Shown in pieces: positions 60,999-61,021 of a stretch of DNA of 64,000 nucleotides. A model generated the notes under the pieces. The model ran no database searches. It had not been told where the DNA came from and saw only the letters and a list, made by a program, of their open reading frames with translations. A program made the translations under genes and the position numbers. The first letter of the stretch is position 1. Each line of letters starts with the position of its first letter. The DNA comes from Escherichia coli (lineage in GTDB: Bacteria; Pseudomonadota; Gammaproteobacteria; Enterobacterales; Enterobacteriaceae): assembly GCF_044324875.1 (NCBI RefSeq), contig NZ_CP172185.1; one strand, given 5' to 3'.

Positions 60999-61021
60999 AT
61001 AAAGTATGTTGTAACTAAAGT
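60999..61021 (+). other. TerB replication terminus site (Tus-binding)
   Basis: Core GTATGTTGTAACTAAAGT at 61004-61021, immediately upstream of tus. Confidence 0.8.

Follow-up and report, generated by a model that had tools for sequence, protein, structure and literature searches.

A short sequence between rstB and tus in an Escherichia coli chromosome resembles a Ter site and lies upstream of the gene for the protein that binds such sites, at some distance from an island inserted in tqsA. This raises the questions of whether the sequence is TerB, the replication terminator found at the same locus in E. coli K-12, what it would do in this lineage, and whether it has any bearing on the island. 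The analysis covered the whole stretch of DNA that contains the site (64 kb, hereafter the window). The site at 60999-61021 is almost certainly the TerB of the E. coli fork trap and probably, at the same time, the operator of tus. The identification rests on the sequence of the site, its position and orientation, its intact cognate protein, and its conservation pattern within the species. TerB is a textbook feature that has already been described, and the copy in the window is a minor variant of its sequence; TerB is among the best-characterized protein–DNA barriers, and biologically its presence in the window is nothing new. Two by-products of the analysis are mildly useful: a lineage-specific TerB allele, in which 1 bp is inserted and the spacer of the putative tus promoter is rewritten, and a phage satellite on the non-permissive side of the site.

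Sequence and Position of the Ter Site

The site and the genes that surround it are the following (window coordinates, strand, and basis of the assignment):

59654..60955, + strand: rstB, sensor histidine kinase (Pfam HAMP, HisKA, and HATPase_c; RefSeq annotation of orthologous loci)
60999..61021, + strand: TerB, 23-bp Tus-binding replication terminator, ATAAAGTATGTTGTAACTAAAGT (unique 18-mer and 14-bp motif match)
61004, + strand: G of the G·C(6) base pair (direct sequence reading)
61032..61961, + strand: tus, DNA replication terminus site-binding protein, 309 aa (Pfam Ter PF05472; RefSeq annotation of the matching locus)
61958..63361, - strand: fumC, class II fumarase (Pfam Lyase_1 and FumaraseC_C; annotation)

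The 18-mer GTATGTTGTAACTAAAGT occurs a single time in the 64-kb window, on the + strand at 61004-61021, and the ATG of tus follows at 61032-61034 (stop at 61961). The earlier note had placed a Ter core 10 bp before the tus start codon, which is exactly what is found, the 10 nt in between (61022-61031) reading ggttaatatt. No further copy of the 18-mer with up to three mismatches is present in the 64-kb window, for which dinucleotide-preserving shuffles give an expectation of 0.02 on average. The degenerate 14-bp motif GNRNGTTGTAAYKA, which we take to be the Ter motif of the literature, matches exactly at 61004-61017 only, and its one match with a single mismatch elsewhere in the window (at 52892) is at chance level. 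Overall, these searches (up to three mismatches for the 18-mer and up to one for the 14-bp motif) revealed no additional Ter or pseudo-Ter sites above chance in the window, including the island.

The TerB of K-12 (AATAAGTATGTTGTAACTAAAGT) is located at 1684226-1684248 of MG1655 on the tus strand; its sequence is also given in PMC4499146 and its position is listed as 1.68 Mb in Table 2 of PMC10331603. The RefSeq annotation of MG1655 contains CDS features only and no TerB feature. Upstream of tus, MG1655 reads ...gctataaaataagtatgttgtaactaaagtggttaatattATG and the window reads ...gctataaaataaagtatgttgtaactaaagtggttaatattATG, so that the window TerB differs from that of K-12 by one extra A upstream of G6 (ATAAAG in the window versus AATAAG in K-12). 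In an alignment anchored on the core, 21 out of 23 positions match and the two differences fall on positions 2 and 3: positions 6-23 (61004-61021) are identical to MG1655 TerB, and so are positions 1, 4, and 5. The Ter match anticipated in the earlier note is therefore borne out by alignment and the site is TerB, but 60999-61021 (ATAAAGTATGTTGTAACTAAAGT) is not identical to the K-12 sequence AATAAGTATGTTGTAACTAAAGT at positions 2 and 3. The extra A can be placed at 61002, on the outer non-permissive flank of the site.

Among Ter sites, positions 1-5, 7, and 19-23 are variable and positions 6 and 8-18 form the conserved core (Goodall et al., PMC8347550), and a ter site counts as legitimate if C6 and the inner core are preserved and mismatches to MG1655 number fewer than five (PMC8347550). 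In the window, G6 and positions 8-18 (TGTTGTAACTA) are intact at 61004-61021. The site is thus a legitimate one in the sense of Goodall et al. 2021, with C6 retained, an intact inner core, and two mismatches (<5) that result from the 1-bp insertion.

The location of the site leads to the same assignment. It is intergenic between rstB and tus and its G6 strand is the tus coding strand, as in MG1655, BW2952, and CFSAN061763, which also settles the orientation relative to tus that had been left for checking. The gene order rstA-rstB-[Ter]-tus-fumC is that of K-12 (annotated in BW2952, MG1655, and CFSAN061763), fumC is convergent with tus with a 4 bp overlap as in K-12, and a 10-bp region that separates TerB from tus has been described (PMC8707476). 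Gene order along the entire window follows that of the E. coli region ynfE...tqsA...pntBA...rstAB-tus-fumC (1.65-1.69 Mb in K-12), and the window therefore belongs to the replication terminus region, as the presence of the Ter site had been taken to mean. As a map landmark, TerB places the window within this region between dif/TerC and TerB in the orientation of MG1655.

The ORF downstream of the site encodes Tus, which makes the site the positional orthologue of K-12 TerB directly upstream of tus, as originally proposed. The ORF matches Pfam PF05472 over its full length (E = 2.4e-137), and 301 out of 309 residues (97%) are identical to K-12 Tus and to PDB 1ECR, 2EWJ, 2I05, and 2I06. The eight substitutions relative to K-12 are I23A, H27E, H116R, K119Q, A221T, N224D, H253Y, and G270S. 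H253Y falls in a region that is presumably part of the DNA-binding beta-strands, and no mention of residue H253 was found in a literature search. The pocket of Tus that accommodates C6 is reportedly made up of I79, F140, H144, and G149, a description that goes back to Mulcair et al. in 2006. None of the eight substitutions touches these pocket residues or R198, a residue whose role is described in PMC8707476.

Conservation of the Site within E. coli

The rstB-tus junction region was found in 5,422 out of 5,426 complete E. coli genomes, and the exact 51-bp stretch that contains the insertion allele (60990-61040) in 262 out of 5,426. When eight divergent E. coli alleles are aligned, no variation is seen at Ter positions 8-23, in the 10-nt gap, or at the tus start. 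Positions 2-3 of the site vary among the eight alleles and position 7 is either T or G (G in five of the eight), two bases that both occur at this position in natural Ter sites. The stretch located 15-25 nt upstream of the Ter site is highly variable. An invariant core with variable flanks, as observed in the eight alleles, is the pattern predicted by selection on the Tus-binding core, and it agrees with the published conserved core at positions 6 and 8-18 (PMC8347550).

This pattern bears on a trivial explanation of the site, namely a chance match or pseudo-Ter site without any Tus-related function. Such sites do exist in E. coli (e.g., terF, H, J, K, L, Y, and Z; PMC8707476, PMC8347550), but here this explanation is vanishingly improbable. 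The match of 21/23 includes a perfect core where 0.02 matches are expected by chance, the site shares its position and orientation with the experimentally characterized TerB, it is located outside any ORF and yet is invariant where its flanks vary, and its cognate tus gene is adjacent. A pseudo-Ter site is effectively refuted by the uniqueness of the sequence in the window, the allele alignment, and the comparison with MG1655, leaving TerB as the identity of the site.

The window site and K-12 TerB have in common the rstB/tus locus, the tus strand, the 10-nt gap, the -35 and extended -10 elements of the putative promoter, and a Tus protein that is 97% identical. K-12 TerB differs in that it lacks the extra A, follows a different 17-nt promoter spacer, and has its core 1 bp nearer to the -10 element. 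TerA, TerC, TerD, TerE, and TerG share the core (G6 and TGTTGTAACTA) with the window site and show 17-20/23 identity to it, based on what we take to be their sequences. Unlike the window site, these five are found at other chromosomal loci outside the tus promoter, and three of them (TerA, TerD, and TerE) are of opposite polarity within the fork trap. In other Enterobacterales with type I traps (e.g., Edwardsiella tarda; PMC8707476), the vicinal Ter1 is likewise located just upstream of the tus ATG and, like TerB, combines a fork barrier with regulation of tus. The two trap types differ in the order of the barriers: in type I traps the Ter linked to tus forms the innermost barrier, whereas TerB of E. 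coli (type II) comes second, behind TerC.

The Putative tus Promoter and the Probable Operator Role of TerB

Published work places terB within the tus promoter and reports that Tus autoregulates tus through terB (PMC8347550, PMC8707476). One further feature was assigned in the window:

60970..60998, + strand: putative tus promoter (conservation and sequence)

It consists of a -35 element TGGTCA (60970-60975), a 17-nt spacer, and an extended -10 element TGcTATAAA (60990-60998) that ends directly before Ter position 1. The -35 element is invariant in all eight alleles and the -10 element is identical in seven of the eight (TACAAA in the eighth), while the spacer between them is variable across the alignment. 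A scan of 60700-62200 for the sigma-70 consensus did not call a + strand tus promoter because its rule demands a T at the last position of the -10 element, which is an A here; the promoter was therefore assigned by eye and by conservation.

The tus transcription start is predicted at approximately 61004-61006, 6-8 nt downstream of the -10 element and inside the Ter core; a literature search did not find a published tus transcription start. Since Ter starts right after the -10 element and covers the predicted start, Tus would be expected to repress tus, with the bound protein occluding the start. The arrangement of a -35 and an extended -10 element that abut Ter fits the published autoregulation of tus via TerB.

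The spacer of the window allele is largely rewritten relative to K-12 (GGCTGTCGATA versus AGTCACCACGA), and the extra A adds 1 bp to the distance between the -10 element and the Ter core. The rewritten patch corresponds to 60976-60987, where the seven other E. coli alleles carry AGTCACCACGA or AGTCACCACCA in place of GGCTGTCGATA. The change also removes a GGTGGT/ACCACC hairpin that was read by eye just after rstB in the ABU 83972, O157, and STS63-2-E alleles. A simple inversion of the K-12 sequence was considered as the source of the divergent patch and was rejected by eye.

Orientation and Replication Fork Polarity

Position 1 of TerB faces rstB and the island, and position 23 adjoins tus. 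The side of position 1 is the non-permissive end, with replisome arrest at A5/G6 (PMC4499146), and C6 flips into a pocket of Tus and thereby locks the complex (PMC4499146, PMC8707476). By analogy, forks that travel from left to right, the direction of tus transcription, would be blocked at TerB and forks that travel from right to left would pass. The rstB gene is transcribed toward the non-permissive face.

GC skew was used as an indirect, time-averaged indicator of fork direction. The skew of the + strand is -0.049 for the whole window and -0.039 once the island is removed; negative values are found in 51 out of 64 1-kb windows, to the left as well as to the right of TerB. Leading strands in E. 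coli are G-rich, and the negative skew thus indicates that the region is normally replicated from right to left, so that the usual fork meets the permissive face of TerB. Overall, the sequence suggests the canonical fork-trap polarity at TerB, in the same orientation as in MG1655, and the site thereby gives the direction of the forks that cross the window.

Tus binding, locking, fork arrest, and autoregulation would be expected at the window allele by extension from published work on K-12. Tus, encoded directly downstream, would bind the 23-bp TerB as a monomer. A replisome that arrives from the left (rstB side) would unwind positions 1-5 and then break the G·C(6) base pair, upon which the freed C6 of the - strand would dock in the cytosine pocket of Tus, lock the complex, and arrest the fork. 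A replisome that arrives from the right (tus side) would meet the permissive face, displace Tus, and continue. With the normal fork coming from the right, as the GC skew suggests, TerB would act as a backup barrier behind TerC for forks of the other replichore that overshoot the terminus.

The site might instead serve in this lineage essentially as the tus operator, with negligible fork arrest, either because TerC catches the forks or because the insertion weakens the non-permissive edge. TerB is the second and not the innermost barrier (PMC10331603, PMC8707476), the window allele differs from K-12 at positions 2-3, and the T7 replisome is slowed at T3-A5 ahead of lock formation (PMC4499146), which implies that the outer bases are not fully inert. 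Such a reduction to an operator is nevertheless very improbable, since the allele preserves the G·C(6) pair, A4, A5, and the entire core and since operator and barrier functions are not mutually exclusive. TerE carries AAAG at positions 3-6, the same bases as the window allele, which also counts against it. Furthermore, functional Ter sites naturally differ from one another at positions 1-5 (PMC8347550), and TerB is a strong, lock-forming site that is bound by Tus in ChIP-seq and autoregulates tus (PMC8707476). Pausing of forks at terB in wild-type cells is stated in a passage of PMC10331603 that cites Duggin and Bell 2009, and in wild-type K-12 this pausing is substantial (PMC10331603; PMC8707476). 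A TerB that combines barrier and operator functions remains the preferred reading of the site, and no finding contradicts it.

The tqsA Island and Other Insertions

A comparison with CFSAN061763, in which tqsA is intact, delimits a 15.6-kb insertion in tqsA at 35241-50812, bounded on either side by a copy of the 9-bp direct repeat TGCTGTTAT. Its genes specify an integrase, a RepA-type helicase, a major capsid protein, a prohead protease, a portal protein, and a large terminase (TerL), assignments for which the annotation of a relative was also used, and no tail genes were seen in the gene annotation of the island. Such a gene set is that of capsid-forming PICI satellites (bioRxiv 10.1101/2022.09.08.507074), and the island is classified, on its gene content, as a capsid-forming PICI-like phage satellite. 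Its closest relative, at 96.5% identity, has inserted between phoQ and roxA, a location far from TerB. Relatives at ~90% identity are also found in tqsA.

The right junction of the island (50812) is separated from Ter position 1 by 10,187 bp, in agreement with the distance of ~10 kb given in the earlier note. The note had added that this proximity could matter for replication or induction of the island, which is speculation with which the geometry alone fits. TerB would in this case be functionally tied to the island as a barrier that influences how the satellite replicates in situ, is induced, or is transduced. The island does lie on the side of the non-permissive face, which means that a rightward fork from an unexcised island would arrest at TerB, and the island encodes its own replication helicase. 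A functional tie is nonetheless extremely improbable. The location of the closest relative at phoQ/roxA indicates that this island family is independent of a nearby Ter site, and on this ground the idea that the island depends on being close to Ter was rejected. Essentially every E. coli carries TerB upstream of tus whether the island is present or absent, PICI-type satellites normally excise before they replicate, and the proximity is explained by the location of the attachment site in tqsA. TerB and the island are most probably neighbors without a functional link. Considered jointly, two readings retain a slim chance: the insertion allele (~5% of genomes) may alter Tus dosage or lock kinetics, as its operator is shifted by 1 bp from the -10 element and its non-permissive edge is altered, and TerB could make in-situ replication or lateral transduction of the island one-sided.

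Within the regulatory region of the island, a 361-aa ORF (47707-48792, - strand) has no Pfam or PADLOC match. Matches to small phage repressor/Icd-like PHROG families are confined to its last ~70 aa, and the ORF was rejected as a real gene and is regarded as a long-open-frame artefact. A second difference from CFSAN061763 is a ~700-bp insertion between ynfM and asr (31440-32145), which contains an IS200-like Y1 transposase on the - strand (31544-32053; Pfam PF01797, E = 2e-37).
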